The notes: generated by a model from the letters alone, not told the origin. Counted from the first letter of the stretch, positions 5,639 to 25,031 are shown. The stretch: 64,000 nt of DNA from a virus (IMGVR_UViG_3300035659_001474:21110-85109), one strand, 5' to 3'. A program made the numbers and translations.

Positions 5639-5687
5639 GCAATCTCCAATTTTTGAATGATATTAGAACTGAGAGATTAAAGAAGTA

Positions 5688-6542: not shown

Positions 6543-6545
6543 TCT

Positions 6546-6604: not shown

Positions 6605-6611
6605 ATGCTCA

Positions 6612-6893: not shown

Positions 6894-6903
6894 AATCAAT
6901 CTA

Positions 6904-6962
6904 CCCTTCTTAATAATTTGGTGGAACTAATTTCAACTTTTGATTGAACTTCTTCTTGTTTT
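6904..6962 (-). repeat. copy 2 of the ~59-bp direct repeat (upstream of gene 6612..6893, overlapping the 3' end of a 58-aa ORF)
   Basis: Near-identical to 6546..6604. Confidence 0.7.
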
Positions 6963-7083
6963 CTCTAACAAAAGTACTACATACAATTTTAACTGGATCA
7001 GAGAAGACTTCTTTTTTGCCACACTTGACACGCCAATTGTAAATAGCACTTCTACCTCTACCACCTCTTATATCTGATGGCAT
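6907..7083 (-). CDS. small hypothetical ORF (58 aa, MPSDIRGGRGRS...NKKKFNQKLKLVPPNY)
   Basis: Manual translation. Its ATG overlaps the stop of the radical-SAM gene (TAATG). It is below the length cut-off of the ORF track. Confidence 0.25.
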
Positions 7084-10785: not shown

Positions 10786-11210
10786 TTCTTAATTCCAACT
10801 AGAATAGGATCAGGAATTGGTATTTCAATTCCTATTGGACGCCATAAATGTAAACAATATGGATGTTGATTCACATATAGACTTTTTGGTGGATGAAATT
10901 GAAATACTGCATCTTCATCGTCCCAAAATAGATCTTTTACTTGACTCATTTCAATCCAATTCGGACATCGATTCTGCAATGACACTGAAACATGCTCCCA
11001 ACCAAGACCGTCACTAGCTATAGTAGTTACTACAGTACCAATCTTAGTCGGTATGTAAAATGCGCCATTGTTACCATAAGAGTCATCACTTGCATAATCG
11101 CCATCACCTCGTATTCGATGTCTATTTGGTACGTGAAACACGCTTTGTCCAAATGTTGAAATTACTGAGTTTGTATAATGAAATGACTGTATCAATGACT
11201 TCTTGATCAT
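10782..11210 (-). CDS. hypothetical protein
   Basis: ORF track. The ATGA overlaps the rtcB start. Confidence 0.35.
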   Translation of the reverse strand: MIKKSLIQSFHYTNSVISTFGQSVFHVPNRHRIRGDGDYASDDSYGNNGAFYIPTKIGTVVTTIASDGLGWEHVSVSLQNRCPNWIEMSQVKDLFWDDEDAVFQFHPPKSLYVNQHPYCLHLWRPIGIEIPIPDPILVGIKK

Positions 11211-11787
11211 CTGTGTACTTTGTATAAAGCATAGTCTTCAAATCAGGTTTGTTTCCAACTTTATCAGAACCGTCTTTGATCTCAGTTTTTCTGTTCTTGA
11301 AAGCGTCCACAAAATCGCAAATAGATATGATTGTGGAAATCTCTAGAACTTTTTTAATAGTTGACGGCGACCAATTCTCAGGAAAAGCATTTTGATCTAA
11401 ACCGTACCCAGCTTTGTAAAGATTATGATGCAAACCCGCGCAAAGTGCCGTAAACATGTGAAGCTTTTTGAGAGCCTTATAACCTGCCTGAGCATGAGTC
11501 TTGACATGATCATACTCTATAGCATCTATATTGCGTCCATCAAATAGTTCTGCAGGCAATAGAAGCTTGCCGGCATCATGTAAGAGACCTGCAAAGAAAG
11601 CCGCTTTTGCATCTTTACGTAGAGCTTTTGCAGTGGCTTCTGCAAGTAAAGCTACTCTTTCCAAGTGATCTTTTGTAGAAGCATGATTGACGTCACACAT
11701 TGCTAGAATCAAACGAGCAGTATGAGCAAGATCACCCTTTGGATTGTATGTTCGAATTTTTGATTCAATCAACGTAGATCGCTTCAT
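11122..11787 (-). CDS. HD-domain phosphohydrolase
   Basis: H..H...AGLLHDAGK motif and a downstream HH pair. Confidence 0.55.
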   Translation of the reverse strand: MKRSTLIESKIRTYNPKGDLAHTARLILAMCDVNHASTKDHLERVALLAEATAKALRKDAKAAFFAGLLHDAGKLLLPAELFDGRNIDAIEYDHVKTHAQAGYKALKKLHMFTALCAGLHHNLYKAGYGLDQNAFPENWSPSTIKKVLEISTIISICDFVDAFKNRKTEIKDGSDKVGNKPDLKTMLYTKYTDDQEVIDTVISLYKLSNFNIWTKRVSRTK

Positions 11788-11788
11788 A

Positions 11789-12442
11789 TCAAAATTCCTT
11801 TGGATCGTAATCCAAACATTCTTTCTTCAAACGATTTAGTTTCTTTGGACAATATGGCATGTCGAATCCAACTTCTTTAAGTATTACTACATTTTTGCAA
11901 TTTTCACATCGTTCTATTGCATATTCTAATAGTCGAGTTTCCCATTGTTCATCTTCCTGATAAGCTCGACAAAAATCTGGAAATAGTTCGACTTTTTGCG
12001 CACATCGATAAATGGTCTTACCTATTTCTATATCGATCATCTCATGATATTCACAATTTCCACAGCGATCCATTGCTGCATCACGACTTTCATGCTCTAC
12101 TGAATGCATAAGATAATCAGATTTACCCTCATCTGATTCTAGGTAAGTTTGGGCATCTATACCAGCTGACTTAAGCAATTGAAAAGACTGATCAACAAAT
12201 TCTTGCTCTCGTGTCAAAATTTCTTCAGGTGTTTGTTCTAATGTCTTAAATCGAGTTAATCGATACACTCGACTAATCAACTGTGCTTTCAATTCTGCCG
12301 GTGTTTTCTGTGAATTCAAAAAGTTAGTATAACATTGAGGTGAACAGCATCTATAGTTAACTAACATCTCACCATAGACACGAATTATTTCTTTGACATT
12401 AAATTGTTTACTGCAGACTCTACAAGTTAATTGGTTTTGCAT
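11789..12442 (-). CDS. CxxC-rich zinc-binding hypothetical protein (real start MQNQLTCRVC)
   Basis: The ORF-track entry 11789..12712 runs on through a tRNA gene. The tRNA translates as ...LVEQQLLDLRVVGSNPARG, a typical tRNA read-through artefact. The first ATG downstream of the tRNA is at 12440-12442. Confidence 0.45.
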   Translation of the reverse strand: MQNQLTCRVCSKQFNVKEIIRVYGEMLVNYRCCSPQCYTNFLNSQKTPAELKAQLISRVYRLTRFKTLEQTPEEILTREQEFVDQSFQLLKSAGIDAQTYLESDEGKSDYLMHSVEHESRDAAMDRCGNCEYHEMIDIEIGKTIYRCAQKVELFPDFCRAYQEDEQWETRLLEYAIERCENCKNVVILKEVGFDMPYCPKKLNRLKKECLDYDPKEF

Positions 12443-12474
12443 ATAGATATAATCAGTTGAAAAAGCTATGAAAA

Positions 12475-12547
12475 TGCCTCGAGCCGGATTCGAACCGACA
12501 ACACGCAGATCTAGAAGCTGCTGTTCCACCAATTGAACTATCGAGGC
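12475..12547 (-). tRNA. tRNA with anticodon CUA (amber suppressor); isotype not assignable
   Basis: Manual fold has a perfect 7-bp acceptor stem (GCCTCGA/TCGAGGC), a D arm with GG, the anticodon loop TT-CTA-GA, a 5-nt variable loop, the T loop TTCGAAT and discriminator A. CCA is not encoded. Confidence 0.8.
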
Positions 12548-12554
12548 ATTCTCT

Positions 12555-12860
12555 TCATGCAAGTGGTAGAGATTTGAAAATCTCACCAGTGTCATAGCAA
12601 GCCATAGCTGTTGGTCTATTCTCCTGATCTGGTTCAATAAAAGTCGTAGACTGTTTATTTTGCAGACATAAGAGACTTGACCATTGCTCAATTCCACTTG
12701 CAAAACGGACACCTAAAAATATCAAATGCCCATTATTCCACTGATGAAATATTTCAGGATATCTCAGTGCAAAAGCTGCCAATGCATGAGCACCCTGCAC
12801 ACAACGATATGTTTCATCCAGATCACTACGCACAAGCACATACATCTTTGGCTTGTCCAT
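12555..12860 (-). CDS. PTH2-type (archaeal/eukaryotic-type) peptidyl-tRNA hydrolase-like protein
   Basis: KMYVLVRSDLDETYRCVQGAHALAA matches the PTH2 motif KMVLVVRxDLxMGKGKIAAQCSHAA. The start is probably the internal MDKPKM; the ORF track gives 12555..12938. Confidence 0.5.
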   Translation of the reverse strand: MDKPKMYVLVRSDLDETYRCVQGAHALAAFALRYPEIFHQWNNGHLIFLGVRFASGIEQWSSLLCLQNKQSTTFIEPDQENRPTAMACYDTGEIFKSLPLA

Positions 12861-13119
12861 GTTGGATCTCCTGGATGAATTGTTGAACAATGTCCATGTT
12901 CGGTTCATTACCTTCACGAGGCTTCTCAATGCACTCATACGGCGTTCCTCTCAGAATGCAGTAAGCAATATGCTTGAGCCGAATATGTGATTTCATTATG
13001 TGCAATTGACATTGTTTTAATGCGCTTGCGGTAGTGTGAGGTTTTGAAAGTTCGACTTTAGACTGTCGAATCTCGAGGGCTTTAGTCTTGAGTTCATTCT
13101 TAAGAATTGTCAAATCCAT
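12826..13119 (-). CDS. hypothetical protein
   Basis: ORF track. Confidence 0.3.
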   Translation of the reverse strand: MDLTILKNELKTKALEIRQSKVELSKPHTTASALKQCQLHIMKSHIRLKHIAYCILRGTPYECIEKPREGNEPNMDIVQQFIQEIQHGQAKDVCACA

Positions 13120-13214
13120 GATATACTCCTGTTTTATTGTTGTTCGTTGACAGACAATTAACCTAGAAGTATATCAGGAGGTGCTCTTATTAGCACCTAT
13201 GTGAAGCCACTAAT

Positions 13215-13391
13215 CTACAACATAGCGACATCCTTTTTAATGAGTTCTATATCATCATCAAACCAACAGCGAGTCTCATTCATTGAATCTTGCACTACAA
13301 CGACACCACTTGCATGATCAATTTCTTTGATCACACCTGTTTTGTCAAGCTTGACATTCTTGACACAATCATTGATGCTGTAGAACTTCAT
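13215..13391 (-). CDS. small hypothetical ORF (58 aa, MKFYSINDCVKN...)
   Basis: Manual translation of a gap not covered by the ORF track. Confidence 0.2.
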   Translation of the reverse strand: MKFYSINDCVKNVKLDKTGVIKEIDHASGVVVVQDSMNETRCWFDDDIELIKKDVAML

Positions 13392-13394
13392 ACA

Positions 13395-13778
13395 TTACTT
13401 TTTGACTGGAGCAGGGCAACCTTGCTGCTGTTCAATAACATCAGGCTCAGTCTTTACTGCTTCTGCATGAGGCGTATTGATGACTGCGCTTACGCTAGCG
13501 ACAATTTTCTCTTCAACTGTCGCAACCGGCACTGGTATTTCAACACACTTTGATTGGGCCGGACTACAACGCAAACACATTGAATTCGTGCATCTTTCAG
13601 TATGCTCATGCTCAGTTGCATGATCACATGCGATATATGGTTTGTCAGTTTTGTTTTTACCAGCAACAGCTGTCTTGAGTATTCCGCATGTCTTAACATT
13701 CTCACAGATAACCATTTCTCTACTCCTTGTAAATAATTGAAAGTTTCTTAACTTATACTTAATCATGCTAATTATCAA
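13395..13778 (-). CDS. Cys/His-rich hypothetical protein
   Basis: ORF track. Contains CDHATEHEHTERCTNSMCLRCS. Confidence 0.35.
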   Translation of the reverse strand: MIISMIKYKLRNFQLFTRSREMVICENVKTCGILKTAVAGKNKTDKPYIACDHATEHEHTERCTNSMCLRCSPAQSKCVEIPVPVATVEEKIVASVSAVINTPHAEAVKTEPDVIEQQQGCPAPVKK

Positions 13779-13783
13779 TGAAA

Positions 13784-13854
13784 GCCACTAGGAGGATGCG
13801 AGCCCCCGACCGACTGCTTACGAAGCAGTTGCTCTACCAGCTGAGCTATAGTGG
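13784..13854 (-). tRNA. tRNA-Thr (anticodon CGU)
   Basis: Manual fold has acceptor GCCACTA/TAGTGGC, a D loop with GG, the anticodon loop TT-CGT-AA and the T loop CTCGCAT. Confidence 0.8.
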
Positions 13855-13867
13855 CAATTTCAAAAAC

Positions 13868-13942
13868 TGGAGACGGCGGGGAGAATCGGACTCCCGGTAT
13901 CGGTTTTGCAGACCGAGGCTTTAACCACTTAGCTACGCCGTC
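13868..13942 (-). tRNA. tRNA-Cys (anticodon GCA), CCA encoded
   Basis: Manual fold has acceptor GACGGCG/CGCCGTC, the anticodon loop CT-GCA-AA, the T loop GTCCGATTC and a 3' TCCA. Confidence 0.85.
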
Positions 13943-13956
13943 GCATTAATAGCTTT

Positions 13957-14181
13957 TCATCTGTGCATTCCACATTTCATCACAATTTCTGCACAGCTTG
14001 CAACTATCATTGCAAAATAGTCAAATGATTCAAATTCTTTTACTTTAAGTTCATCAAGTTTGCTTAGTATTTTTATTACTTGATGTTGTTCAAATAGTAA
14101 TGGTATCTGTTTAGATTTAGTGCCACAGTGTATACACATTTGTGACATATCATTCACTGGACTGAAAATTACAGATGCCAT
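13957..14181 (-). CDS. hypothetical protein
   Basis: ORF track. Confidence 0.3.
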   Translation of the reverse strand: MASVIFSPVNDMSQMCIHCGTKSKQIPLLFEQHQVIKILSKLDELKVKEFESFDYFAMIVASCAEIVMKCGMHR

Positions 14182-14227
14182 TTTGTTTTCTACAATGAAG
14201 TCTATCTATCCACATAGTATGTCAAAA

Positions 14228-14319
14228 TGGCGGAGAATACAGGATTCGAACCTGTGGAGGTTTTTAAAGTCCTCACTACGTTAGCACCATAGAGCCTTAA
14301 ACCACTCGGCCAATTCTCC
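14228..14319 (-). tRNA. tRNA-Ser (anticodon GCU), type II with a long variable arm, CCA encoded
   Basis: Manual fold has acceptor GGAGAAT/ATTCTCC, a 3-bp D stem, the anticodon loop GT-GCT-AA, a long variable stem (GTGAGG...CCTCCAC) and the T loop TTCGAAT. Confidence 0.85.
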
Positions 14320-14655
14320 GTGCTGAATATGTCGCTTTTCTTGAATTGTTTTTTCATCGAAGTATTTTCTTGGATTACCACATCCCATGCATGAGCAAAG
14401 TTTCGTCGTATGTCTATGACGTCGTTCAGATTTTGTCACCCATTCAGGATGTTGCAATTTCGTAAGCTGACTGTAAAAGTTGACTACACGTTTCTTACTC
14501 TTCTTGACTCCAACAAGAAAACGTTCTTTCCTGTTCACTGGATGTGACATGATGACTCCTTTTGTTAGCGCCACTAAGTGCGCGTTCATGTGGATGCCAT
14601 CATGTACTCCTTTCAGTGTATTTGTCTGTAAAACAATTGCCGCAAGCACTGTCAT
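14281..14655 (-). CDS. doubtful ORF whose C-terminus is a translation of tRNA-Ser
   Basis: The ORF ends ...GELAEWFKALWC, which lies inside the tRNA. Any real coding part would be shorter, or the ORF is spurious. Confidence 0.2.
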   Translation of the reverse strand: MTVLAAIVLQTNTLKGVHDGIHMNAHLVALTKGVIMSHPVNRKERFLVGVKKSKKRVVNFYSQLTKLQHPEWVTKSERRHRHTTKLCSCMGCGNPRKYFDEKTIQEKRHIQHGELAEWFKALWC

Positions 14656-14679
14656 TAAATCGGTTGATTAGCAAATTAA

Positions 14680-14951
14680 CTGGCGAGAAGGGACTCGAAC
14701 CCCCAACCATCTGGTTACACTTATCCACATATTTTTATGTGGCGTGGACTTTCTCTTCACCTTGTCTATTACTAGATTTAGGTGCACCGTGTAAAGTCTC
14801 TACACATAAGAGCTTTTTTTACTCTCTTGCTCGGGATTGCCATAGATAGATTCCTTAGGTTTCCCCGACTTAGCGGCGTGTTCATCTAAATATTTCTATT
14901 TAGAGCTGCGTTTACCCACAGCCAGATGCTCTGCCATTGAGCTACTCGCCA
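14680..14951 (-). tRNA. tRNA interrupted by a group I intron in the anticodon loop. Exon 1 is 14918..14951 and exon 2 is 14680..14717. The best reading is tRNA-Asn (GUU); tRNA-Thr (UGU) is the alternative.
   Basis: The 5' half reads TGGCGAG-TA-GCTCAATGGCAGAGC-A-TCTGG-CTGT. The 3' half reads TAA-CCAGA-TGGTT-GGGGGTTCGAGTCCCTT-CTCGCCA-G. The acceptor pairs perfectly (TGGCGAG/CTCGCCA) and the anticodon stem is TCTGG/CCAGA. The splice site follows a U, and the intron ends in G. Confidence 0.7.
14718..14917 (-). ncRNA. group I self-splicing intron (IC3-like, tRNA anticodon-loop type)
   Basis: The intron contains GGGGAAACCTAAGG, a GGCAATCCCGAGCAAG Q-like element, a GTGTAGAGACTTTACACGG R/P7-like element, CCTAAATCTAGTAATAGACAAGG and GAAAGTCCACG. 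All are close to the Azoarcus and Anabaena tRNA intron cores. A 6-bp P1 can form between exon GGCUGU and intron GCAGCU. Confidence 0.7.
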
Positions 14952-14974
14952 ATAATTTCAAAGAACTATCAAAG

Positions 14975-15050
14975 TGGTGGCTGCGTCCGAAGTTGAATCG
15001 GAGGCCTCTTGTGCTTCAAACAAGCGCTCTACCGACTGAGCTACACAGCC
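14975..15050 (-). tRNA. tRNA-Phe (anticodon GAA), CCA encoded
   Basis: Manual fold has acceptor GGCTGTG/CGCAGCC, D arm GCTCAGTCGGTAGAGC, the anticodon loop TT-GAA-GC and the T loop TTCAACT. Confidence 0.85.
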
Positions 15051-15440: not shown

Positions 15441-16121
15441 ATGTCAACGCCTACTATCACTAGTCAAAGAGTTAGTCCGATTCTTGCTGGTAAGAACAAA
15501 GTAACCACAATCAACATGACACAGCTGTATGTTGATGATCCTGATTTCCCTGGAGGACTTGGTAAAGATTGGGTAATTGAAGCACAAGCAGGTGCACATT
15601 ATACTGTAGATCAAGATTCAGGTGTAGTAGAATCATTTGACTTGATGCCTACAGCAAATTACACAGGTTCATTGTCAGTGGCAGTGAAATTAAGCAGTGA
15701 TGGTGGTTCGACTTGGAGCTCGTGGTTTGGACTTAACATATTGGTTGTCGAAGTTCCTGTAATTTCAAATCAGACGAGCTTTCCGAAAGTGTATATTGGA
15801 TCTTACCTCACGATCACGCTTAACAATTTGATTGTTGTGACAAGTAAGATATATCCTCAGCAATTCACACTATTAGCTTCTACTGGTATAGGATACTCAG
15901 TAATTTCATCAACCAGTACGTCAGTGAAGATTTTAATTGAAGGTAATTTGTCAACTACTTCACGATCAATACCCGTTCGAGTAAATGATGGATCAATTTG
16001 GAGCGACGCCTACAATTATATCGTTAATGTTGTTGCAAAACCTGCGACTGGCAGACCTGCAGCAATGGGAGTTAGTATAACTGCACCGTCACCGTTTGAG
16101 CAGCCTTTTAGAAGAGTCTAA
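15441..16121 (+). CDS. hypothetical Ser/Thr-rich, beta-rich protein (possible structural or glycosylation-target protein)
   Basis: ORF track. It is the first gene of the plus-strand glycan cluster and is followed by a strong terminator. Confidence 0.4.
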   Translation: MSTPTITSQRVSPILAGKNKVTTINMTQLYVDDPDFPGGLGKDWVIEAQAGAHYTVDQDSGVVESFDLMPTANYTGSLSVAVKLSSDGGSTWSSWFGLNILVVEVPVISNQTSFPKVYIGSYLTITLNNLIVVTSKIYPQQFTLLASTGIGYSVISSTSTSVKILIEGNLSTTSRSIPVRVNDGSIWSDAYNYIVNVVAKPATGRPAAMGVSITAPSPFEQPFRRV

Positions 16122-16142
16122 ACTAATTCATAAATTTGAAAA

Positions 16143-16178
16143 AGCTGATGACATAGAATATGTTATCAGCTTTTTTTG
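16143..16178 (+). terminator. rho-independent terminator
   Basis: A 12-bp stem (AGCTGATGACAT/ATGTTATCAGCT) with loop agaat, followed by T7. Confidence 0.6.
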
Positions 16179-16190
16179 CTCTCTTAATAG

Positions 16191-17243
16191 ATGAAAATTA
16201 TGATACCGAAAAAAGTACTAATTGGTAATGATCCTTGGAGTACTGATTTACTAGATTTCATTAAATCTGGTCCTCATTATTTGACCGCGCAGCAATGGCA
16301 AGAAAATATTGACATACCTTTAGAATCTACTTTCTATTACAAATGGTTAATGTCAATGTTCATAGCTGACGGTGCTGTGTGGGGCGGAATATTGAAAAAT
16401 GAAGATGACATTGTGAAGCAATGTGCTAGATATAGAGCTATGTATTTGATAGCTCCTAAGTGGCAAGAGGAATATAGTACATGGCAAACTGATACGAATT
16501 CTGCACACTATTATGGATATAGACCTGCAAAAATTCATCGTAATGGTGCTATTGACATTTGGGACGGCATGCATAGAATAAGCTTATTGACTTTCAAGCA
16601 GTTGCCTATAGAAGTTACAATATGTGAGCGATTACCGGGATGGGCGGAACTATACAAAGAAATTGAAGATTTGTATCCTAATAAAATGCTATATCAGCCG
16701 ATACCACATCCTGACTTTAGTGATTGGGCCACAGCAATTGACGGCAACAAAGAACAAATTATTTGCGACTTCTTCAAACAAAATAAAATTGACAGTGTAT
16801 TAGATTTGGGTACTTGTCACGGTTTCACTCTTTACAAACTAAAAGATCTGATTAAGCACGGTATAGGCATTGAATCTGACAAAATTAGATTTCAAATAGC
16901 AAGTATACTGCTAAACAAAATAGGGTTTTCTTGTCATAATGCAAATGTAATAGACTACATTGAGACTAGTGAAAGTGTAGATTGCACGCTGTGTCTAGCA
17001 ATGCTGCATCATATATCGAGACTATGTCCTATAGAAGTGTTTGAAAAATTCTTGCAAACAGTAGCACAAAAGACTAAGTTTATAATCTATACATTGCCAA
17101 ATCCGAATGAAGATCAGTTCTCATGGATATATGAATCTAAAAGAGACAATTTTGACGAGTACATATTGCAATTGACAGGCTTCAAAACTAGAGAAGTAAT
17201 AGCTAGTTCTAGAGAAATTAGAATATTAGAAAAGAACCTATAA
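16191..17243 (+). CDS. protein with a C-terminal class-I SAM-dependent methyltransferase domain
   Basis: Motif I VLDLGTCHG and post-I GIESD. Confidence 0.55.
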   Translation: MKIMIPKKVLIGNDPWSTDLLDFIKSGPHYLTAQQWQENIDIPLESTFYYKWLMSMFIADGAVWGGILKNEDDIVKQCARYRAMYLIAPKWQEEYSTWQTDTNSAHYYGYRPAKIHRNGAIDIWDGMHRISLLTFKQLPIEVTICERLPGWAELYKEIEDLYPNKMLYQPIPHPDFSDWATAIDGNKEQIICDFFKQNKIDSVLDLGTCHGFTLYKLKDLIKHGIGIESDKIRFQIASILLNKIGFSCHNANVIDYIETSESVDCTLCLAMLHHISRLCPIEVFEKFLQTVAQKTKFIIYTLPNPNEDQFSWIYESKRDNFDEYILQLTGFKTREVIASSREIRILEKNL

Positions 17244-18055
17244 TGTACGGCGTAACATACGATCAAGAAAATAGTACATTAAGTCTTGACAAACATGATT
17301 GTGGTTTGTTATCTAATGCTAGTGTGACATTTAAGAGCCTGCTATCAATACACAAAGATGCGTCAAGACTTGTGAAAATATTATGGCCATATACGTCAGC
17401 TTGGAACAAACCTGACAGATTAAGTCGAAATGTTTATGATCTATATTTTACGACAGTTAACAGTGATATTAAGACAGGACAAGACATTTATTTTAATGCA
17501 ATGATTGGTGATTGTAATAAGTTTGATTTTAGTGCACTAAAGCCAATTAGAGATACATATTTCAATTTATCTAGTGAAGTAATAGCTAGACAAGAGTCAT
17601 TCATTCAAAAGTACCATATAGACTTTGATCGTACTATTGCAATTCTTTATAGAGGTACTGATAAAATTCTTGAAGTGCCAAGAGTACATCCAAAGTATTA
17701 TTTGAACCCAATCAGTCCGATTAAGGACATTTCAAATTATAGGGTACTTATACAGACAGATCAACAACAGGCATTAGACTATTTCAATCACGAGTTACCT
17801 AATTCGTTTCACATTGAAGAAATGCCGTTGACAAAAACAGATCAAGTGATGCATAATTTACAACGTGATACAAGAATGAGTAATTACGATTTGGGCGTCA
17901 ATTATTTGGCTGCGATTGCTATTTTGAGTAAGTGTAAGTATGTAGTTTATGATACTAATAATGCAGGATTATGGATATGTATTTTACGAGGTGACATTAA
18001 TAACATGTGTCAAATACATGCAAGCGTTAACACAATGAATAGATTTGAGTACTAA
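17243..18055 (+). CDS. hypothetical protein in the glycan cluster
   Basis: ORF track; its ATG overlaps the upstream stop. Confidence 0.4.
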   Translation: MYGVTYDQENSTLSLDKHDCGLLSNASVTFKSLLSIHKDASRLVKILWPYTSAWNKPDRLSRNVYDLYFTTVNSDIKTGQDIYFNAMIGDCNKFDFSALKPIRDTYFNLSSEVIARQESFIQKYHIDFDRTIAILYRGTDKILEVPRVHPKYYLNPISPIKDISNYRVLIQTDQQQALDYFNHELPNSFHIEEMPLTKTDQVMHNLQRDTRMSNYDLGVNYLAAIAILSKCKYVVYDTNNAGLWICILRGDINNMCQIHASVNTMNRFEY

Positions 18056-18066
18056 AAGAAAAAATC

Positions 18067-18645
18067 ATGAACAGAACAGACATCATCAACTTCTATACTA
18101 GCAAAAAACAAAACTGTCGTTATCTTGAAATAGGCATTGGAAACGCATCTGCCAATTTCAATAAAATCTTTGCTGCCGTAAAAGACGCAGTAGACCCTGT
18201 CAATCCCTGTAATCATCTTATGAGTTCTGATGCATTTTTCTCAAGTAATACTCAACAGTATGACGTCATTTTTATAGACGGTGATCACAAAGCAGCTCAG
18301 GTCATCAAAGACATTTCAAATTCACTAAAATGTTTGAGTGCTGATGGAATTATACTTTTGCATGATTGTAATCCTGAATTAGAAGTTCATCAAACAGAAA
18401 GTATTACCGTATCTCATTGGAATGGATCAGTTTGGAAAGCAATACTATTTTATAGAATGCTTGATCCTAATTTATCAATCTACACTGTTGATATAGATGA
18501 AGGTATTGGCATAATAAAGCGCGGACAACAAGAGCTATTTGAGTGTAGCGAAACAATGTTTGACTTTGCTTTTCTTTGCAAATATAGACAGAAAATACTC
18601 AATTTGCTAACCGTGCATGAGTGGCAATTGATGGAGCGACAATGA
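18067..18645 (+). CDS. class-I SAM-dependent O-methyltransferase (CmcI/TylF-like)
   Basis: YLEIGIGNASAN followed by DVIFIDGDH and ILLHDC. Confidence 0.55.
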   Translation: MNRTDIINFYTSKKQNCRYLEIGIGNASANFNKIFAAVKDAVDPVNPCNHLMSSDAFFSSNTQQYDVIFIDGDHKAAQVIKDISNSLKCLSADGIILLHDCNPELEVHQTESITVSHWNGSVWKAILFYRMLDPNLSIYTVDIDEGIGIIKRGQQELFECSETMFDFAFLCKYRQKILNLLTVHEWQLMERQ

Positions 18646-19571
18646 TCTATACTATGTCTTATTGGCATTGGTACAAGTACTGTAGTATTCAAGTTAAAAA
18701 TATTACAGTTGACGTTGAACCAAGCAAAGATGACTGGTTCGTTGTATTTCAGCCTTATGATGCTGCTCGTAGAGAACTAGTGTCGACTGTTATTGATAGA
18801 TTTGATTACTCTAAAAGAGTGCTGATTCATTATGAGGGTCGATATCGACAGCCTCACGGATTTAGACTAAGATATCAGCAAAAGTTTGGAAGAATCTATA
18901 CTTACAATTCAACTGATGTCGACGGTGACACTGTCAAGTACATGCCAATACCACTATGGATTACTGAAGAAGAATGCTACCCAACCGGCAATCGATCAAA
19001 ATTCATTGGTACTGTCATAACTAACTATTTCCGAGACGGTGAGCCAAGAAATACAATAATAAACAAATTCAAAAACTTAGGTATGGACGTTTACGGAAAT
19101 TCAGATAAACCTGTGCCATTAGACATTAAACAGCAATCTAGTGATACTAACTTACCTAGATATTCTGCTAAAGTGAAATTGCTATCAGACTACACGTTTG
19201 CTTTTACTATAGAAGGTCAATTAGACTTAGGTCACTTGACTGAAAAACCATTTGACTTGATAGCAGCAGGCTGTATACCTGTTTATTTAGGGCCAAAAGA
19301 TGCATCAACGTTTATTCCTAAAGATTGCTATATTGATTATAGAGATTTCTGGTCTGAAGCTGATCTAATGAAATATCTTAAAAGTATGTCACAGCAAAAA
19401 ATTCAAGAGTATCAGCAGTCAATTGCAAAACATCAAAAAGTTTTAGTAGGCATGAGAACCTTTGAATCATGCATGAGATTTCTATGTAAAGATTTGGGTT
19501 TTGACTGTCAATCACCTTATCATGATCAAATACTAGAACTATCAAATATACTTGCAACAAGGACAAAATAA
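18621..19571 (+). CDS. GT10-like (alpha-1,3-fucosyltransferase-like) glycosyltransferase
   Basis: YTFAFTIEGQLDLGHLTEKPFDLIAAGCIPVYLGP resembles the GT10 motif FxLAFENS..GYVTEK...IPVV.G. Confidence 0.45.
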   Translation: MAIDGATMIYTMSYWHWYKYCSIQVKNITVDVEPSKDDWFVVFQPYDAARRELVSTVIDRFDYSKRVLIHYEGRYRQPHGFRLRYQQKFGRIYTYNSTDVDGDTVKYMPIPLWITEEECYPTGNRSKFIGTVITNYFRDGEPRNTIINKFKNLGMDVYGNSDKPVPLDIKQQSSDTNLPRYSAKVKLLSDYTFAFTIEGQLDLGHLTEKPFDLIAAGCIPVYLGPKDASTFIPKDCYIDYRDFWSEADLMKYLKSMSQQKIQEYQQSIAKHQKVLVGMRTFESCMRFLCKDLGFDCQSPYHDQILELSNILATRTK

Positions 19572-20101
19572 TGAAGTTGCATTTAGGTTGCGGCAAACGA
19601 TATATTCCTGGCTATACGCACATTGACGTTATAGAATATCCTCACATTGATATAGTGAATAGTGTTGATCGTCTACCAATGATTGAAGATGAATCATGTG
19701 ATGTAGTTTATAGTTGTCATGTATTAGAGCACTTTCACAAAAAAGTCATTATAGATGTTCTTCATGAATGGTTAAGAGTACTAAAAGTAAATGGTACATT
19801 GAGAATATCTGTACCTGATATGCAAAGTCTACTTAAAGTGTATGAGAAAACAGATGATCTTTCATTAATACTCGGTCCTATATTTGGCAGGTGCAATTAC
19901 CTATACAATTTTCATTACACAGGATTTGACTTTAAGTCTTTGAAACATGTACTTGAATTAGCAGGTGCTAAAGATGTTAGGCGTTATGACTGGAGACTAA
20001 CAGAACATGCAGACGTTGATGACTACAGTCAAGCATATATTCCGCAAGATAAAATAAACGGGACTCTTATTAGCTTAAATGTAGAAGCGACAAAAGTATG
20101 A
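19571..20101 (+). CDS. class-I SAM-dependent methyltransferase
   Basis: MKLHLGCGKRYIPGY followed by VVYSCHVLEHF. Confidence 0.55.
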   Translation: MKLHLGCGKRYIPGYTHIDVIEYPHIDIVNSVDRLPMIEDESCDVVYSCHVLEHFHKKVIIDVLHEWLRVLKVNGTLRISVPDMQSLLKVYEKTDDLSLILGPIFGRCNYLYNFHYTGFDFKSLKHVLELAGAKDVRRYDWRLTEHADVDDYSQAYIPQDKINGTLISLNVEATKV

Positions 20102-23100
20102 GTGTATTTTTATCTGACTTAACAGTCTTTGTCATAAGTAGTGGTCACAATCCTTGCTATGATGCATGCTTGCAGTCATTAAACTCTCAAACAGTTTCAT
20201 TTAAGATTGAAATTATCAAAGATGTTCATCCGATGTCAAAGGCCTTTCAATGTATGATCGATTCTTGCAAAACTCGATACTATATTGAAATTGATGAAGA
20301 TATGGTCATGAACGCAAATGGTATTGAAATCCTACACAAGTATGCTATTCAATCTGCACCAATGACAGCTATGATTGCCTGTAAATTGATTGATGTGCAT
20401 TTGAATTTTGAAATTTATGGTGTCAAGATTTACAAGCATGACATACTTAAGAGATATCCATACGATTTGTCCTCAATGTCATGTGAAGTTGAACAAATTG
20501 ACAGAATGAAAAATGATCAATATAAAGTCGCATTAATGACTGATGTAGTCGGTCAACATGCGCCTTATTGGTCTAATGAAGGAATATTTGATAGATATCG
20601 CAATTTACTTGACAAATTCAAACAGTTTAGATATCCCTGGACAGGCGATCTACCTGCAAAATTGTGGTCAATGTTGAAAACTCAGCCAACTGAGCAGAAC
20701 ATGTATGCTTTACTTGGTGCATATACTAGTTTGATCACAGAAACTGTTCAAGTAGGAGAGAAAGACTTTAGAAATAGAAATGCGCCATTTGAAACAATGA
20801 GAAGCTTCATGAATCCTCCTGTTAGTGCGAACTTGTATCTAACATCAAAATGTAATTTCAATTGCAAGTTTTGTTATCGTAATTCTCAATTAATTGAACA
20901 GTCTATTGACATGACGCTAAAAAGCGTTAGTGACTTGTTAATAAGATATCCGTCAATTAGAGGCGTTTGTTGTGCTGGCTATGGAGAACCATTTTTATGC
21001 GATAGTCTTTTTGACATCATATCATTTCTAAAGTCAAAAAATAAAGTTGTCGGACTAATAACAAACGGATCACTAATAGTTGAAAACATCAATAGTTTGT
21101 TAGCAAACAGACCGGACTATATATCTATTAGCTTGAATGCGTCTAATGCAAAAATACATAGCGAAATAAACAAGTCATTTACGTTCGATACTGTACTACA
21201 AGGTATAAGACTCTGCGTAAGCAGTGGATTACCTACCTACTGTTCGTACGTATGCACCAAAAGCAATTTACAGTATATTCCTGAATTTTTGAAATTAGTA
21301 GACTCTTTAGGTGTAAAAACTGTGCACTTACTAAATTTGTTGCCACACTTAGCAAGTGACTATGACGACAAATCATTTTGGCAAGAAGTATTGACGAATG
21401 ATGACAGACGCAAAATTGATGCATTACAAGAACTTCCTGAAGCTCATTTAATCAAGCTGTACCCGACGCTAATAAATCGTAACGAAATTCAATGTAATTG
21501 TCAAATACCATGGACTACAATAGGTATAAACGGTAATGAAAGCGTGACATTCTGTGGATCAGTTTATGCGCCAGATAGAGCTAATGGGTCACTTAAGAAT
21601 TTTGAAAATGTTTGGTTAAATAAGAGTGCTAGAGAATTAAGAACTAATTTATGTGATGTCAATACGATGACTGACACGTGTAAAATGTGTTTTAGAAATT
21701 GCAACTCGTATAATCCACCAGCAAAACAAATAGTGTCACAACCTAAGCAAATTCCAAAAAAGCTTAAAGTTTGTAAAATTATTGATCAATTTGGTTGGGC
21801 CTATTACTTTGTTGCGAAAGAACAGCAATTATATTCTTCGCATGACATCACGTACAAACGACTGTTAGATGTCACTGACATCGATGCAGACATAGTATAC
21901 ATTCATGCACCAAATATTGATCACGCTAAAATCAATAGTCTTGTTTCATCATTAAAGCAAAAAGGTATCAAAGTTATTGGTGGTTATGGCGGAGAATCAA
22001 AACTAAAATATGACACTAATCCGGATCTTATAGTATCAATATCGATGAGACATATTGACTGCTTGAACAATATGTACCCCAATAAACCTGTTGTGTTCCT
22101 GCCAGAATCAATTGACACCAGCTTCTTTACTGCAGCTGTAAAAGATGACAATAATTTTATAGTTGGCTGGGCAGGCTGCTTGCGCGATGTAAAACGACCT
22201 CACTTACTAGACAAACTAAAATTCAACGTTGTTAAGAAAAATGACTGGGGCAAGCAGTTTTTCTCTGATGGTAGATTACTAGACGACATGAAGTCATTTT
22301 ATCATTCAATTGATGTACTAGTATTGACAAGTATTAGCGAATGTATGCCAAGAGTAGTATTAGAGGCTATGTCATGTGGATTGCCTGTAGTTTCTACAAG
22401 AGTTGGTTGTATTGGAATGCTACTGGACAAAGACTGGATTGTAAGTGTATTACCTGAAGAAAATGTTATTTCAGAAATGAATCATAAACTTTCATTGCTA
22501 AGTAATAGTAAGTCACTACGACAAGAAGTAGGCAAAAGAAACAGACAACACATTTTGAAGTTTTTTAGTTGGGCAGCTAATCAAAAATTATGGGATAGAA
22601 CATTTGAACTAGTTATGCAAAACAGATTCAAAGATATAGCAGTTCTTAGTGATGAATTTATACAGTCATTACCAAATTCAAACGAATTGCAATTCAATAA
22701 TTTGGACATGCAGACCGAACAAACTAATTTTCCAGAATTAATTCAATGTGAATTAGTCAAATGCGAACCGGTCTTACAGCAACCTAAATTAGAACCTGCA
22801 TCTAATGTAGAATTAGTAAAAATTGAAACTCGTCTTGAACCATCTAAATTCAAAAAACCAGTATTCATATCCTACTACACGAAAAATACGGGTTATGAAA
22901 ACGAATATAAAAAATTGGAATCATCATTAAAACGATTCAGTCTAGATTATGAAATAGTTGGCATTGATTCACAAGGCAGTTGGTTCAACAATTGCTTCTA
23001 TCGCACAACATTTGTCAAAGACATGCTAAACAAACATGGTCGACCTGTAGTATGGGTTGACTGCGATGCAATAATACAACAAGATCCACAGTTACTTTCT

Positions 23101-23424
23101 ACATTAAGCGAGTTTGACTTTGCATTCCACCCAAGAGTTAGATCAAATGGTAGTACTGAACTTCTCGGCGGTACAATGTATTTTAATTGTACTGTCGGTG
23201 CACTAAAGTTGCTAGCTAAATGGACTGAATTAGTAAATGCAGATAGAACAAAATATCGACTCGATCAATCTTATTTGCATGAAGCAGTCAGTACCTTACA
23301 TTCACTGAAAGTTTATTATTTACCAGCCACTTATTGTCAAATATTTGACCTAATGAAAGATGCTGGTAAGCCTGTCATAGAGCACTTTCAGGCGTCAAGA
23401 AAATACAAGCAACATGTTAAATAA
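20098..23424 (+). CDS. 1108-aa multidomain glycan-modifying protein: a GT2-like N-terminus, a radical SAM/SPASM-like domain, a GT4 (Glycos_transf_1) domain and a C-terminal nucleotide-sugar transferase-like domain
   Basis: VISSGHNPCY (GT-A-like); LYLTSKCNFNCKFC (CxxxCxxC) with downstream Cys clusters; ECMPRVVLEAMSCGLPVVSTRVG (GT4 E-x7-E); VVWVDCDAII (DxD). Confidence 0.6.
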   Translation: MSVFLSDLTVFVISSGHNPCYDACLQSLNSQTVSFKIEIIKDVHPMSKAFQCMIDSCKTRYYIEIDEDMVMNANGIEILHKYAIQSAPMTAMIACKLIDVHLNFEIYGVKIYKHDILKRYPYDLSSMSCEVEQIDRMKNDQYKVALMTDVVGQHAPYWSNEGIFDRYRNLLDKFKQFRYPWTGDLPAKLWSMLKTQPTEQNMYALLGAYTSLITETVQVGEKDFRNRNAPFETMRSFMNPPVSANLYLTSKCNFNCKFCYRNSQLIEQSIDMTLKSVSDLLIRYPSIRGVCCAGYGEPFLCDSLFDIISFLKSKNKVVGLITNGSLIVENINSLLANRPDYISISLNASNAKIHSEINKSFTFDTVLQGIRLCVSSGLPTYCSYVCTKSNLQYIPEFLKLVDSLGVKTVHLLNLLPHLASDYDDKSFWQEVLTNDDRRKIDALQELPEAHLIKLYPTLINRNEIQCNCQIPWTTIGINGNESVTFCGSVYAPDRANGSLKNFENVWLNKSARELRTNLCDVNTMTDTCKMCFRNCNSYNPPAKQIVSQPKQIPKKLKVCKIIDQFGWAYYFVAKEQQLYSSHDITYKRLLDVTDIDADIVYIHAPNIDHAKINSLVSSLKQKGIKVIGGYGGESKLKYDTNPDLIVSISMRHIDCLNNMYPNKPVVFLPESIDTSFFTAAVKDDNNFIVGWAGCLRDVKRPHLLDKLKFNVVKKNDWGKQFFSDGRLLDDMKSFYHSIDVLVLTSISECMPRVVLEAMSCGLPVVSTRVGCIGMLLDKDWIVSVLPEENVISEMNHKLSLLSNSKSLRQEVGKRNRQHILKFFSWAANQKLWDRTFELVMQNRFKDIAVLSDEFIQSLPNSNELQFNNLDMQTEQTNFPELIQCELVKCEPVLQQPKLEPASNVELVKIETRLEPSKFKKPVFISYYTKNTGYENEYKKLESSLKRFSLDYEIVGIDSQGSWFNNCFYRTTFVKDMLNKHGRPVVWVDCDAIIQQDPQLLSTLSEFDFAFHPRVRSNGSTELLGGTMYFNCTVGALKLLAKWTELVNADRTKYRLDQSYLHEAVSTLHSLKVYYLPATYCQIFDLMKDAGKPVIEHFQASRKYKQHVK

Positions 23425-24043
23425 TAGATTAGTGATCATTGGTGGCGGATCAAGTATAAAAGAATTTGACTTAGCTAAGCTTGATCATGAATTCACATTC
23501 GGTTTGAATTTTGTTTGCCACTATTATGAACCCACAGCATTAATATGGATCGATCGCAATTTCTACAACCAAAACCAACAAGCTATAGACAAACTCAGGT
23601 GTGTGAAAATCACAAGAGATAGCCGTGATGTGCCAACAGATGTATTCAAATTAATGTCTGCAAAACAATATCATGGTTTAGATGGATTAACATCTGGTCT
23701 GTACCATCCGTATTTAGTCGGACTATTCTCGTTGTCATTGGGAATAGCACTTAAATTCAAAGAGATTTATTTACTTGGATTTGATGGACGATTTATGAAT
23801 GACAACAGTCATTTCCACGATATAAAGTATCGTGGTACAGAAGATGAAGATGTTTACATTCGTGGCAATAAATACTTCGATGTCTATAAAGATTGTGAAT
23901 CTAAGATCTACAATGTTTCACCTGATTCAGCGATTCATACATTCACTAAAATCACATACAATGACTTTTGCAAAACAATTGATAATGACGATATTGATCA
24001 AATAGATGCAAGAAAATGGCTTGTTAAATCTTTGACAATTTAA
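23414..24043 (+). CDS. GT42/CstII-like (sialyltransferase-like, DUF115) glycosyltransferase
   Basis: LVIIGGGSSIKEFDLAKL and YHPYLVGLFSLSLGIALKFKEIYLLGFDGRF..NDNSHF parallel Campylobacter CstII (VIIAGNGPSLKEID; GVYMCAVAIALGYKEIYLSGID..NDNSHY). Confidence 0.5.
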   Translation: MLNNRLVIIGGGSSIKEFDLAKLDHEFTFGLNFVCHYYEPTALIWIDRNFYNQNQQAIDKLRCVKITRDSRDVPTDVFKLMSAKQYHGLDGLTSGLYHPYLVGLFSLSLGIALKFKEIYLLGFDGRFMNDNSHFHDIKYRGTEDEDVYIRGNKYFDVYKDCESKIYNVSPDSAIHTFTKITYNDFCKTIDNDDIDQIDARKWLVKSLTI

Positions 24044-24294: not shown

Positions 24295-24329
24295 AGGGTC
24301 GGCGAGACTCCATTCGCCGGCCCTTTTTA
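24295..24329. terminator. bidirectional rho-independent terminator at the convergent junction
   Basis: aaaaAGGGTCGGCGA-gactccat-TCGCCGGCCCTttttt, an 11-bp stem with one G·U pair and an A/T tract on both sides. It overlaps the stop of the 24327..25031 gene. Confidence 0.7.
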
Positions 24330-25031
24330 ATGAATAGCGTTTTTGTAGAGAGACGAAAGATTGTCTTCGAGACCACACTTGTTACACGACATGTGTAGCG
24401 TATTTTGTAGCAACTCATCAAAAGAAGAGTCAATAGTACCTATCTTGTGACAAAAGCGTGACTCACCTGCAACAATATTACCATGAATATCAATTGACGG
24501 TGAGCAAATTTTACCCTTCATTCTTAAGAGCATCACGGCTTTTGAAAAGTCTTTCAAAGTCTTACAAGCACTTCTAAGATTGAAACACAATGGTGACATT
24601 CGACCAGCAGGCTCATTCAAATTTCTTGCTCGTCCAATGGGACTAAGAAGATTGATTTTATCAGCAAATAGTACTCGAGGATGATTGATAGGTTCTACTT
24701 TCAGTGGATAATACTTTGGATCATTATAGACTTGAATTGGAATATTGTATGCTAGAATCATTTCTCGAGTCTTAGTATCAGACCAGAATAAGCCGTTGCT
24801 TAAAAGAATAGCATTCCAGTCTTTCAATTCATTCAAAATCTGTTGAATTTGTGGATGATCAGTAGGTTCACCGCCACTTACTAATATAATACGTCGACCA
24901 CTGTATATATGCTCTATGAAAACGAGTGTCTTTCTAAACGTTTCAAGAGACATATGTTCACCGACAGATTTTGCATCTTCCATGCAATGGCTGCAACTCA
25001 TTTGACATTGTGTGGTGATTTTAACCAGCAT
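24327..25031 (-). CDS. radical SAM domain protein
   Basis: TQCQMSCSHC (CxxxCxxC), LVSGGEPT, and C-terminal Cys clusters. Confidence 0.65.
   Translation of the reverse strand: MLVKITTQCQMSCSHCMEDAKSVGEHMSLETFRKTLVFIEHIYSGRRIILVSGGEPTDHPQIQQILNELKDWNAILLSNGLFWSDTKTREMILAYNIPIQVYNDPKYYPLKVEPINHPRVLFADKINLLSPIGRARNLNEPAGRMSPLCFNLRSACKTLKDFSKAVMLLRMKGKICSPSIDIHGNIVAGESRFCHKIGTIDSSFDELLQNTLHMSCNKCGLEDNLSSLYKNAIH

Follow-up and report, generated by a model that had tools for sequence, protein, structure and literature searches.

A four-module phage polypeptide joining three predicted glycosyltransferases to a radical SAM module as one fusion state of a largely viral didomain family

Introduction

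Can radical chemistry on sugars be built into the same polypeptide that transfers them, and can a virus encode such an enzyme? To our knowledge, almost all known cases of radical SAM sugar chemistry come from antibiotic pathways of cultured bacteria, and the viruses known to encode glycosylation are chiefly those of algae, with a few phages besides. The question is raised by a long open reading frame (ORF) in the window analysed here, a stretch of 64,000 nucleotides of viral DNA (IMGVR_UViG_3300035659_001474:21110-85109), in which a single stop-free frame (20098..23424, plus strand, as are its parts and the adjacent genes below) encodes a protein of 1108 aa. A preliminary description had presented this frame as a giant four-domain enzyme in which radical SAM chemistry, coupled directly to glycosyl transfer, would generate a modified sugar by C-methylation, epimerisation or deoxygenation. 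Answering the question requires establishing whether the frame is real, what each module is predicted to be, which part of the chain evolves as a unit, and which substrate its genomic surroundings favour.

Integrity and architecture of the reading frame

The protein comprises, from its N-terminus, a divergent module predicted to be a GT2-like GT-A glycosyltransferase (D1), a radical SAM core followed by an iron-sulfur tail (D2), a GT4 glycosyltransferase module (D3) and a PF03407 module of the GT-A type (D4). The initial claim of one polypeptide with four modules is borne out, the modules being two predicted GT-A folds, one GT4 fold and a genuine radical SAM partial barrel, and both quoted strings are present in the frame, NLYLTSKCNFNCKFC at aa 245-259 and ECMPRVVLEAMSCGLPVV at aa 748-765.

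Six further sequences, which are 59-86% identical to it and come from at least 4 different metagenome samples, have the modules in the identical D1-D2-D3-D4 order, so the frame is not a mis-join of two ORFs, the outcome that would have refuted the initial claim; P0002-P0006, L011 and L012 share the architecture. The exact arrangement is rare, as had been supposed, being represented by about seven clusters.

Strong purifying selection acts on each of the four modules, with dN/dS values of 0.083 (D1), 0.072 (D2), 0.079 (D3) and 0.055 (D4), against 0.31-0.37 in the linkers. Disordered linkers flank D3 on both sides, and D1 is joined to D2 without any flexible linker. The first (aa 536-553; 21703..21756) is variable, with pLDDT below 50 over aa 519-553 and a dN/dS of 0.37 compared with about 0.07 in the domains, and the second (aa 866-918; 22693..22851) is of low complexity and variable length, with pLDDT below 50 throughout, a dN/dS of 0.31 and indels between aligned relatives.

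The glycosyltransferase modules

The most readily classified of the transferases is D3 (aa 554-865; 21757..22692), which matches Glycos_transf_1 (PF00534) over aa 704-817 (E 3e-12, 46.9 bits against a cut-off of 26.4) and PF13692 (47.7 bits against a cut-off of 27). Its E-x7-E motif, formed by E748 and E756 within ECMPRVVLEAM (22339..22365), is kept in all full-length relatives, and Foldseek matches include BshA, MshA and the BA1558 GT4 enzyme. With an above-threshold profile and this motif, D3 is assigned to the predicted GT-B glycosyltransferases of family GT4.

The C-terminal module, D4 (aa 919-1108; 22852..23421), is likewise assigned by profile and motif to the PF03407 nucleotide-diphospho-sugar transferases, with a predicted GT-A fold. 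Scanned alone, it matches PF03407 at 27.7 bits against a curated cut-off of 22, as do 7/7 family members, and its DxD motif (D988-C989-D990; 23059..23067) is invariant in an alignment of seven sequences, two of which are distant phage proteins. Its structural model is poor (pLDDT 40-70), and single-sequence and profile searches against PDB sequences returned nothing useful. Stand-alone counterparts of D4 are found in P0087, in L010 and as gp30 of Cronobacter phage JK004.

More divergent is D1 (aa 1-235; 20098..20802). The copy in the 1108-aa protein has no significant Pfam match, and sequence and profile searches against the PDB again gave nothing useful; weak matches to PF00535 (GT2) occur in 8/11 family members, the best at E 7e-6, and an AF2 model of high confidence (pLDDT 85-97) displays an alternating beta/alpha pattern. 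A DxD motif (D66-E67-D68; 20293..20301) comes after the modelled strand E61-66, and an alignment of 35 didomain relatives (29-45% identity) has D68 in every member and D66 in at least 90%.

The radical SAM module and its auxiliary-cluster tail

Central to the question is D2 (aa 240-535; 20815..21702), which motif and profile place in the radical SAM superfamily, with predicted SAM cleavage. The Radical_SAM profile (PF04055) matches aa 247-400 over nearly its full length (positions 2-165 of 166; E 6e-20, 72.4 bits against a cut-off of 29.5). The CxxxCxxC motif (C252, C256 and C259; 20851..20874), invariant in 35 relatives, would hold the radical SAM [4Fe-4S] cluster; it lies inside this match and in a confidently modelled domain, whereas a position in a linker with no barrel would have refuted the initial claim. 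The SAM-binding 'GGE' motif is represented by AGYGEP (aa 293-298; 20974..20991), in which G294, G296, E297 and P298 are invariant. Inteins interrupt relatives of D2 exactly at the third Cys of CxxxCxxC (P0009, P0011) and, at a second site, at the Cys directly preceding the GxGEP motif (P0008, P0010, P0012), positions that are typical of essential catalytic residues.

The Cys clusters downstream of the core had been described as SPASM-like, a reading that is only partly sustained. Seven downstream Cys are indeed present, of which C468, C486, C528 and C531 alone (21499..21690) are invariant among the 35 relatives, C466 and C518 being lost in close relatives and C535, the last Cys of the CX2CX3C spacing in this tail, being unique to the 1108-aa protein. 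SPASM domains are defined by the seven-Cys motif CX9-15GX4C-gap-CX2CX5CX3C-gap-C, which binds two auxiliary clusters, and twitch domains are truncated versions with a beta-hairpin and a helix, one Cys before and one after the hairpin, two Cys after the helix and one cluster (PMC6231123). In the model, C468 precedes a hairpin (E474-478/E482-484), C486 follows it, and C528 and C531 come after helix 509-519. SPASM membership was rejected on the four conserved Cys and on the lack of any PF13186 match up to E 1; because only four Cys are conserved, in the pattern of one auxiliary cluster, the modelled tail fits a twitch-like layout with a single predicted auxiliary cluster. A PDB search with the Cys-rich tail alone matched designed 'Pizza' propellers, which were discarded as spurious.

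Module shuffling and distribution

Whether the four-module chain is itself the unit of interest was assessed from relatives retrieved with a HMMER scan of 1.84 billion proteins; hits at E <= 1e-30 numbered 365. Judged from the sequences, the real unit is the stable and abundant D1-D2 didomain, carried by 88/162 proteins examined, and the four-module chain is one fusion state of shuffling modules. P0025, of 540 aa, is an example of the plain didomain. The giant enzyme of the preliminary description therefore exists, but its standing as the unit of interest does not survive, since relatives have the modules separate, permuted or partly missing. In L007, D1-D2 is followed by a separate 321-aa GT4 gene that is 44% identical to D3 over its full length; in P0013 and about 9 other proteins D3 precedes D1-D2; in L040 and L043 D1 is fused to D3 and D2 is the next gene. 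In locus L010, which encodes D1-GT4-GT4-D4, D2 (44% identity) stands alone 1.3 kb upstream; a methyltransferase, a PIG-L deacetylase, WbqC and a GT29-like gene accompany them. The arrangement D1-GT4-GT4-D4 is also that of P0019, about 15 proteins are D1-D3 without D2, and a D3-type GT4 is encoded at the same locus in 15/19 viral loci. These fusion and fission states tie the modules to a single pathway, and the fused frame probably arose by the joining of genes that stay separate neighbours in related phages.

The didomain occurs on IMG/VR viral contigs of up to 388 kb (the viral contigs of the analysis number 44) and is almost absent from the 185,579 cellular genomes of a GTDB scan, in which D1 was found alone in bacterial chromosomes. 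Searches with the 1108-aa protein and two divergent members recovered no cultured phage with D1-D2. A 537-aa protein of Ralstonia phage RP12 (BFVD) shares no more than 18% identity across the radical SAM part. On this distribution, D1-D2 constitutes a sizeable, almost purely viral and unstudied family of predicted enzymes. No description of a glycosyltransferase-radical SAM fusion was found in the literature; work on pelagimyophages reports radical SAM cassettes near transferase genes, without fusion.

Gene neighbourhood

Directly upstream lies an island of genes (15441..20101) encoding two proteins of unknown nature (226 and 270 aa), a 350-aa protein of which half is a methyltransferase by Pfam (16191-17243), and Pfam matches to Methyltransf_24 (18067-18645), a GT10-like enzyme (18621-19571) and Methyltransf_11 (19571-20101), the last overlapping the start of the fusion by 4 nt. 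The island is syntenic in L001, and L016 and L017 carry the same gene set in another order beside unfused D3 and D1-D2. A homologue of the 350-aa protein occurs in 8/19 viral loci; its identification as WbdD or as a pseudaminic-acid methylase was dismissed, the matches being not significant (E 0.2 and 0.0085).

Overlapping the stop of the fusion is a 209-aa ORF (23414..24043) with counterparts at 66% identity in L001 and 24% in L010. Its interpretation as a Maf/MptE-like protein glycosyltransferase conserved across loci was abandoned, the only match being a sub-threshold MptE-like one in the L010 homologue (E 0.01). In L016-L018 the ORFs that occupy this place are unrelated to it and probably correspond to sulfotransferases of the neighbour census.

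Across loci, the recurring neighbours are mostly carbohydrate enzymes, including several glycosyltransferases, TylF-type O-methyltransferases, sulfotransferases, DegT aminotransferases, PIG-L and WbqC, a context of carbohydrate biosynthesis. The 25 most frequent neighbour families include no lipid-carrier, flippase or polymerase genes. Elsewhere in the window, 55883-58759 encodes a 958-aa tail-fibre-like protein, a candidate virion protein.

Proposed function and alternative explanations

In our judgement the ORF probably encodes a functional, modular enzyme with which a large (jumbo-type) phage assembles a glycan, its radical module editing a sugar. Each of D1, D3 and D4 would transfer a sugar from its nucleotide-sugar donor, and in D2 a SAM-derived 5'-deoxyadenosyl radical would abstract hydrogen from a sugar unit, most probably the one that D1 has just attached, with the single twitch-type auxiliary [4Fe-4S] cluster handling the second electron. 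Candidate reactions include two-electron oxidation yielding a keto sugar, conversion of a uronic acid into a pentose by decarboxylation, epimerisation and dehydration, any of which might give a sugar form missing from the nucleotide-sugar pools of the host; the glycan could then be finished by the class I methyltransferases and the GT10-like enzyme encoded nearby. Of the three chemistries originally suggested, C-methylation is the least likely because a Pfam scan detected no cobalamin-binding domain in the ORF. That D2 acts on a sugar at all, by which reaction, in what order of steps and on which acceptor, is what we infer, as is the direct coupling of its chemistry to transfer; given the carbohydrate-biosynthesis context, radical chemistry directed at a sugar is the most parsimonious view. 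Because lipid-carrier, flippase and polymerase genes are lacking among the 25 most frequent neighbour families, we favour as acceptor a phage structural protein or some other cytoplasmic molecule. A more specific version, which we put forward only tentatively, regards D1-D2 as a virus-specific enzyme that transfers and then edits, its GT-A half attaching an ordinary sugar of the host to a glycoconjugate of the phage (virion) and its twitch radical half at once rewriting that sugar into a residue available from no nucleotide-sugar pathway. Workers in the field caution that similarity within the SPASM/twitch subfamily is no guide to function (PMC6231123).

The substrate of D2 could instead be a protein or peptide acceptor, as for anSME, sactisynthases and peptide epimerases, in which case the module would create or complement a glycosylation site on a phage structural protein. 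Of these, anSME converts Cys or Ser to formylglycine, and the structural neighbours of D2 described below include peptide maturases. A RiPP recognition element is nevertheless absent from D2, which has a predicted GT-A module as its N-terminal partner; sugar enzymes, rather than precursor-peptide, protease or exporter genes, recur in the neighbourhood; all NCBIfam matches of D2 fall far below the family cut-offs; and the enzyme that matches best in structure has a glycoside as its substrate, leaving this explanation unlikely. Less credible again is a role in hypermodification of phage DNA, with the transferases adding sugars to modified bases and the radical SAM module altering the group so attached. 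Phage thymidine hypermodification pathways do include radical SAM steps, and glycosylated 5hmC systems exist; the genome is that of a large phage, in L007 about 2.8 kb separate D1-D2 from the last gene of an upstream FolE/QueD/QueE/QueC 7-deazaguanine cluster, a dUTPase is present in 4 neighbour sets, and a DGMHR stretch in the 350-aa protein is, by eye, reminiscent of ParB-like domains. Against this, neither the recurring neighbours nor the island in the window include hydroxymethylase, TET/JBP, DpdA or base-kinase genes, the multiple glycosyltransferases with TylF-type O-methyltransferases, sulfotransferases, DegT, PIG-L and WbqC are typical of complex glycan synthesis, and the term 'radical SAM' is absent from a preprint on viral DNA glycosylation (10.1101/2023.12.21.572611).

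That D2 is a decayed, dead spacer, or the long frame an artefact of assembly or gene calling, is already largely refuted and deserves very little credence. The modules are separate genes in other phages, and since relatives without D2 exist (P0019 and the D1-D3 proteins), D2 must be dispensable for the fold of the chain; but the cluster ligands and GxGEP are all invariant under the low dN/dS of D2, the domain model is confident, inteins are kept at active-site Cys, and the unbroken four-module frame is found repeatedly across metagenome samples.

Significance

The D1-D2 family would join radical SAM sugar chemistry to viral glycosylation, through a predicted radical enzyme fused to a predicted glycosyltransferase; selection on these proteins is strong, and they are found almost exclusively in large phages that have not been cultured. 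If D2 edits sugars, phages could make glycan residues beyond the abilities of their hosts, with a bearing on virion shielding and recognition, and a compact two-domain system of about 540 aa would combine substrate delivery and radical tailoring in one chain. On the tentative transfer-and-edit version above, no earlier radical SAM enzymes would be devoted to making viral glycans, and the family would mark jumbo-phage glycans with chemistry not yet seen. The natural fusion, fission and permutation states, moreover, provide ready hypotheses on which modules cooperate.

Comparison with known systems

In overall construction, parallels are found in the chlorovirus PBCV-1 proteins A064R and A111/114R, single polypeptides that string together several transferase modules, with methyltransferase modules as well, and that build the capsid-protein glycan in the cytoplasm from host nucleotide sugars. 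We know of none with a radical SAM module, and these enzymes belong to eukaryotic algal viruses, the likeness to the 1108-aa protein being one of architecture as described. A cellular system that brings similar activities together is mycofactocin biosynthesis, where the SPASM/twitch-class radical SAM maturase MftC, the oligosaccharide-building GT2 enzyme MftF and the sugar O-methyltransferase MftM act in one pathway (PMC7491314); weak NCBIfam matches to MftC (E 5e-11) and MftM (E 0.004) lie far below the family cut-offs, and, unlike in the phage fusion, the radical enzyme modifies a peptide and the proteins are separate.

Among the twitch enzymes, D2 shares its layout with BtrN, MoaA and SkfB and is an orthologue of none, all its NCBIfam matches being far below cut-offs; they are free-standing or RRE-linked, whereas D2 is fused to a glycosyltransferase. 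The closest solved structure to D2 is BlsE (PDB 7VOB), at only 18% sequence identity and with a match that leads those to the peptide maturases SkfB, SuiB, anSME and PqqE by no more than about 3 Z units. BlsE is the radical SAM cytosylglucuronate decarboxylase of the blasticidin S pathway, acting on a sugar just installed by a transferase, and is a typical single-[4Fe-4S] enzyme (2013 paper). Because D2 has four extra invariant Cys, its chemistry may differ from that of BlsE, whose substrate is a nucleoside and not a glycan. In the actinomycete antibiotic pathway BlsE is free-standing and its transferase, BlsD, is a separate protein, whereas in the phage family the predicted transferase D1 and the predicted radical enzyme D2 are fused in a single chain.

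Architecture and integrity of the fusion gene

The main result of this analysis is a sizeable, virus-restricted and uncharacterised family of glycosyltransferase–radical SAM proteins, encountered here in an ORF at 20098-23424 (+) that runs for 1108 codons without interruption. The motif strings quoted in the preliminary description are present, NLYLTSKCNFNCKFC at aa 245-259 and ECMPRVVLEAMSCGLPVV at aa 748-765. In a whole-protein Pfam scan, Radical_SAM matches aa 247-400 (E 6e-20, profile almost fully covered) and the C-terminal half of GT4 matches aa 704-840 (E 3e-12), with no match at either terminus. A search of 5.8 billion protein sequences returned one identical copy, six full-length relatives at 54-70% identity and partial ones, and alignment of these relatives together with mapping of local matches made the boundaries of four modules clear: D1 (aa 1-235, GT2-like), D2 (aa 240-535, radical SAM), D3 (aa 554-865, GT4) and D4 (aa 919-1108, the PF03407 family of GT-A nucleotide-diphospho-sugar transferases).

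The assignment of D1 is based on weak GT2 (PF00535) matches in 8 of 11 D1 sequences and on a conserved DED motif at residues 66-68; the module is also found as the C-terminal part of unrelated proteins that combine several transferases (relatives P0014-P0017). Isolated D4 exceeds the curated Pfam threshold for PF03407, and all seven D4 family members match this family, including a stand-alone Cronobacter phage JK004 protein and part of an 836-aa protein from a megaphage. The full-length AlphaFold model likewise displays four modules, with D1 very confident (pLDDT 85-97), a D1–D2 junction free of disordered linker, disordered linkers at 519-553 and 866-918, and a poor model for D4 owing to its shallow alignment. 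Pairwise dN/dS against an 86%-identical relative is 0.083, 0.072, 0.079 and 0.055 for D1 to D4, versus 0.37 for the first linker and 0.31 for the second, so each module is kept functional. Judged by these substitution rates and by the same ORF in relatives, the gene is genuine and single, and a mis-join of two ORFs is ruled out.

Radical SAM module and its predicted auxiliary cluster

In a confident model based on 12 sequences (pLDDT 83, pTM 0.84), D2 forms a partial beta/alpha barrel of six strands, after which come a beta-hairpin and a helix. Across 35 didomain (D1–D2) relatives sharing only 29-45% identity, C252/C256/C259 and the GxGEP residues G294/G296/E297/P298 are invariant, as are exactly four further cysteines, C468, C486, C528 and C531. 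The tail of this protein holds seven cysteines and is SPASM-like in appearance, the class named in the preliminary description; C466 and C518 are missing in close relatives, C535 is found only here, the SPASM-defining CX2CX5CX3C block is not present in the tail, and the Pfam SPASM model does not match the fusion protein, so that SPASM membership was rejected. In the models, one invariant cysteine stands ahead of the hairpin, one behind it and two after the helix, the layout of a twitch domain with a single auxiliary cluster such as that of BtrN (PMC6231123; PMC9012708). By this placement, and with the SPASM block lacking, the predicted class of the tail is twitch-like, which answers the check for a third SPASM cysteine pattern suggested in the preliminary description.

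Five relatives (P0008-P0012) carry inteins of 330-355 aa that interrupt the radical SAM core (e.g. 10001-12655 of locus L007) at two sites, the third cysteine of CxxxCxxC and the cysteine directly ahead of GxGEP. Inteins typically sit at indispensable catalytic residues. Other members of the family also have insertions of intein size, located in their D1 and D3 modules.

Module shuffling and viral distribution

An exhaustive HMMER scan over 1.84 billion cluster representatives retrieved 365 proteins at E <= 1e-30, and the modules were mapped on 162 proteins, namely the best 150 of these and those of the first search. D1 is fused to D2 in 88 of the 162, comprising 49 plain didomains of about 530-570 aa, about nine with an intein-size insertion, 14 with an additional N-terminal region, about nine with D3 ahead of the pair and seven with D3, with or without D4, behind it; about 15 mapped proteins are D1-D3 without D2, and stand-alone D3 and D4 also occur. 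Individual loci show the modules unfused: in L007, D1–D2 precedes a separate GT4 gene 44% identical to D3 over its full length; in L040 and L043, D1 is joined to D3 and D2 comes next as a gene of its own; and jumbo-phage contigs L016 and L017 hold, in different order, nearly all genes of the same-strand carbohydrate island around the fusion ORF, with D3 and D1–D2 unfused. The IMG/VR contig L010 encodes a D1-GT4-GT4-D4 protein without radical module and, 1.3 kb upstream, a free-standing D2 (44% identity) adjoining genes for a methyltransferase, a PIG-L sugar deacetylase, a WbqC-family protein, a second D4 and a GT29-like protein. This recurrence of fusion, fission and permutation is strong genomic evidence that D1 to D4 work in one pathway. 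The four-module make-up of the "giant" enzyme is confirmed and its interpretation partly supported, with a twitch-like tail in place of SPASM; the 1108-aa chain is just one of the arrangements that these shuffling modules take, and the unit of interest is the didomain.

Separately, in the 462-kb uncultured megaphage LR756500 (L005, 2224-4734), the same kinds of module are arranged differently again in an 836-aa protein, whose unidentified N-terminal region is accompanied by a D4-like PF03407 module (34% identity) and by GT4 at the C-terminus.

The window itself is phage-like, with a five-tRNA cluster, a sigma-70 factor, an NAD-ligase, DnaB and homing endonucleases; among cultured phages, its 958-aa protein and DnaB are most closely related to proteins of Bacillus phage G and Tunturiibacter phage Tunturi_5, and the window's close relatives, 113 and 126 kb in length, are viral contigs in IMG/VR. 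The didomain profile hit 44 IMG/VR loci, 22 of them with both halves and seven on contigs of 200-390 kb. Among 185,579 bacterial and archaeal species (one genome each), both halves occur in only four of the best 80 loci, all on MAG contigs of <=50 kb that may represent phage DNA binned in error; the remaining 76 have only D1, in many cases on megabase chromosomes of Planctomycetota, Acidobacteriota and Nitrospira. D1 would accordingly be an ordinary bacterial transferase family whose fusion to D2, nearly always lacking in cells, is essentially viral. The didomain is absent from 50,697 deposited phage genomes and has no close structural relative in BFVD, no family member examined bears an informative name, and literature searches found no description of a glycosyltransferase–radical SAM fusion. 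The JGI pipeline already labels the identical protein as both, so the co-occurrence is machine-visible yet unstudied.

Gene neighbourhood and other features of the window

A census of 142 ORFs lying no more than about 4 kb from 19 viral didomain genes is dominated by GT4 (12) and class I methyltransferases (about six per Pfam model, TylF-type sugar O-methyltransferases included), together with GT10, NDP-sugar epimerase/dehydratases, DegT aminotransferases and sulfotransferases. The 25 most frequent families include no lipid-carrier, flippase or polymerase genes. Upstream of the fusion ORF, on the same strand, lie three methyltransferase-type genes and a GT10-like gene. Directly after D1–D2 in L016 (9618-10271), L017 (9624-10265) and L018 (9617-10264), an ORF of about 215 aa, unrelated to the window's downstream ORF, probably belongs to Sulfotransfer_2, counted three times in the census, and hints that some of these phage glycans are sulfated. 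In L007, a FolE/QueD/QueE/QueC 7-deazaguanine cluster (4546-7207) ends about 2.8 kb upstream of the didomain gene, and this phage probably modifies its own DNA too.

Two further small radical SAM ORFs, at 24327-25031 (-) and 7083-7985 (-), encode 234 aa with CQMSCSHC and 300 aa with CNFHCKYC, the latter MoaA/twitch-like by NCBIfam, and a DUF1848 protein lies at 40107-40856 (-); such unusual richness in Fe-S radical enzymes suggests an anoxic habitat. Other minus-strand genes encode a complete trigger-factor homologue (Trigger_N, FKBP_C, Trigger_C; 47455-48798), an unusual gene for a phage to carry, and SPFH/Band 7 (31293-32702), OmpA-domain (35089-36666) and R2K-clade ATP-grasp (5688-6542) proteins. 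An RtcB-type RNA ligase is apparently interrupted, possibly by an intein or homing-endonuclease insertion: ORF 9316-10785 (-) matches RtcB only N-terminally, followed by an HNH endonuclease, and ORF 8373-9383 (-) carries the remainder by eye.

The same leader of about 45 aa (MKHLAxIQxEFLKxARKWDDMSxxEQKAYLKRHPKSKRKITAKP) starts at least five otherwise unrelated minus-strand ORFs (382-1470, 1523-2050, 4832-5638, 53630-54037 and 58990-60261), with a weaker copy at 2310-4067 on a body M17 aminopeptidase-like by eye, and may be a targeting, packaging or processing tag. Within the five-tRNA cluster (12474-15050), ARAGORN places a tRNA with anticodon CTA at 12474-12548 (-), an amber suppressor labelled Pyl. 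Late-infection stop-codon reassignment has been reported in some large phages, and this tRNA may hint at it; the window's ORFs read normally with code 11.

Proposed function and alternatives

Most economically, the fusion protein and its neighbours would form an assembly line for a glycan in the cytoplasm, in which D1, D3 and D4 would each add one sugar, neighbouring methyltransferases would methylate glycan sugars, and D2 would edit a sugar through hydrogen abstraction. The direct D1–D2 junction and the precedent of BlsD/BlsE, a transferase step followed by radical SAM sugar editing, point to the sugar installed by D1 as the most likely substrate. In line with a proposal made for BtrN (PMC9012708), the twitch cluster would take the second electron. 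Oxidation, decarboxylation, epimerisation and dehydration are each possible; C-methylation is unlikely, since the Pfam scan detected no cobalamin-binding domain in the fusion protein. As acceptor, we lean towards a virion protein, a host surface glycan being possible.

The main alternative, that D2 acts on a peptide or protein, draws on real fold similarity to maturases and is nonetheless unlikely, given that D2 has no recognition element and that peptide-pathway genes are missing nearby, with nothing RiPP-like among the 25 most frequent neighbour families of the 19 viral loci. Those same families include no DNA-base hypermodification enzymes, and DNA hypermodification by the island (15441-24043, +) is conceivable but improbable. 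A dead D2 or an artefactual ORF is essentially excluded, as conservation, selection and recurrence all oppose it. Glycan assembly with radical editing of a sugar is the reading we prefer, and it joins two known kinds of system: multi-module viral glycosyltransferases and twitch radical SAM enzymes that tailor sugars.
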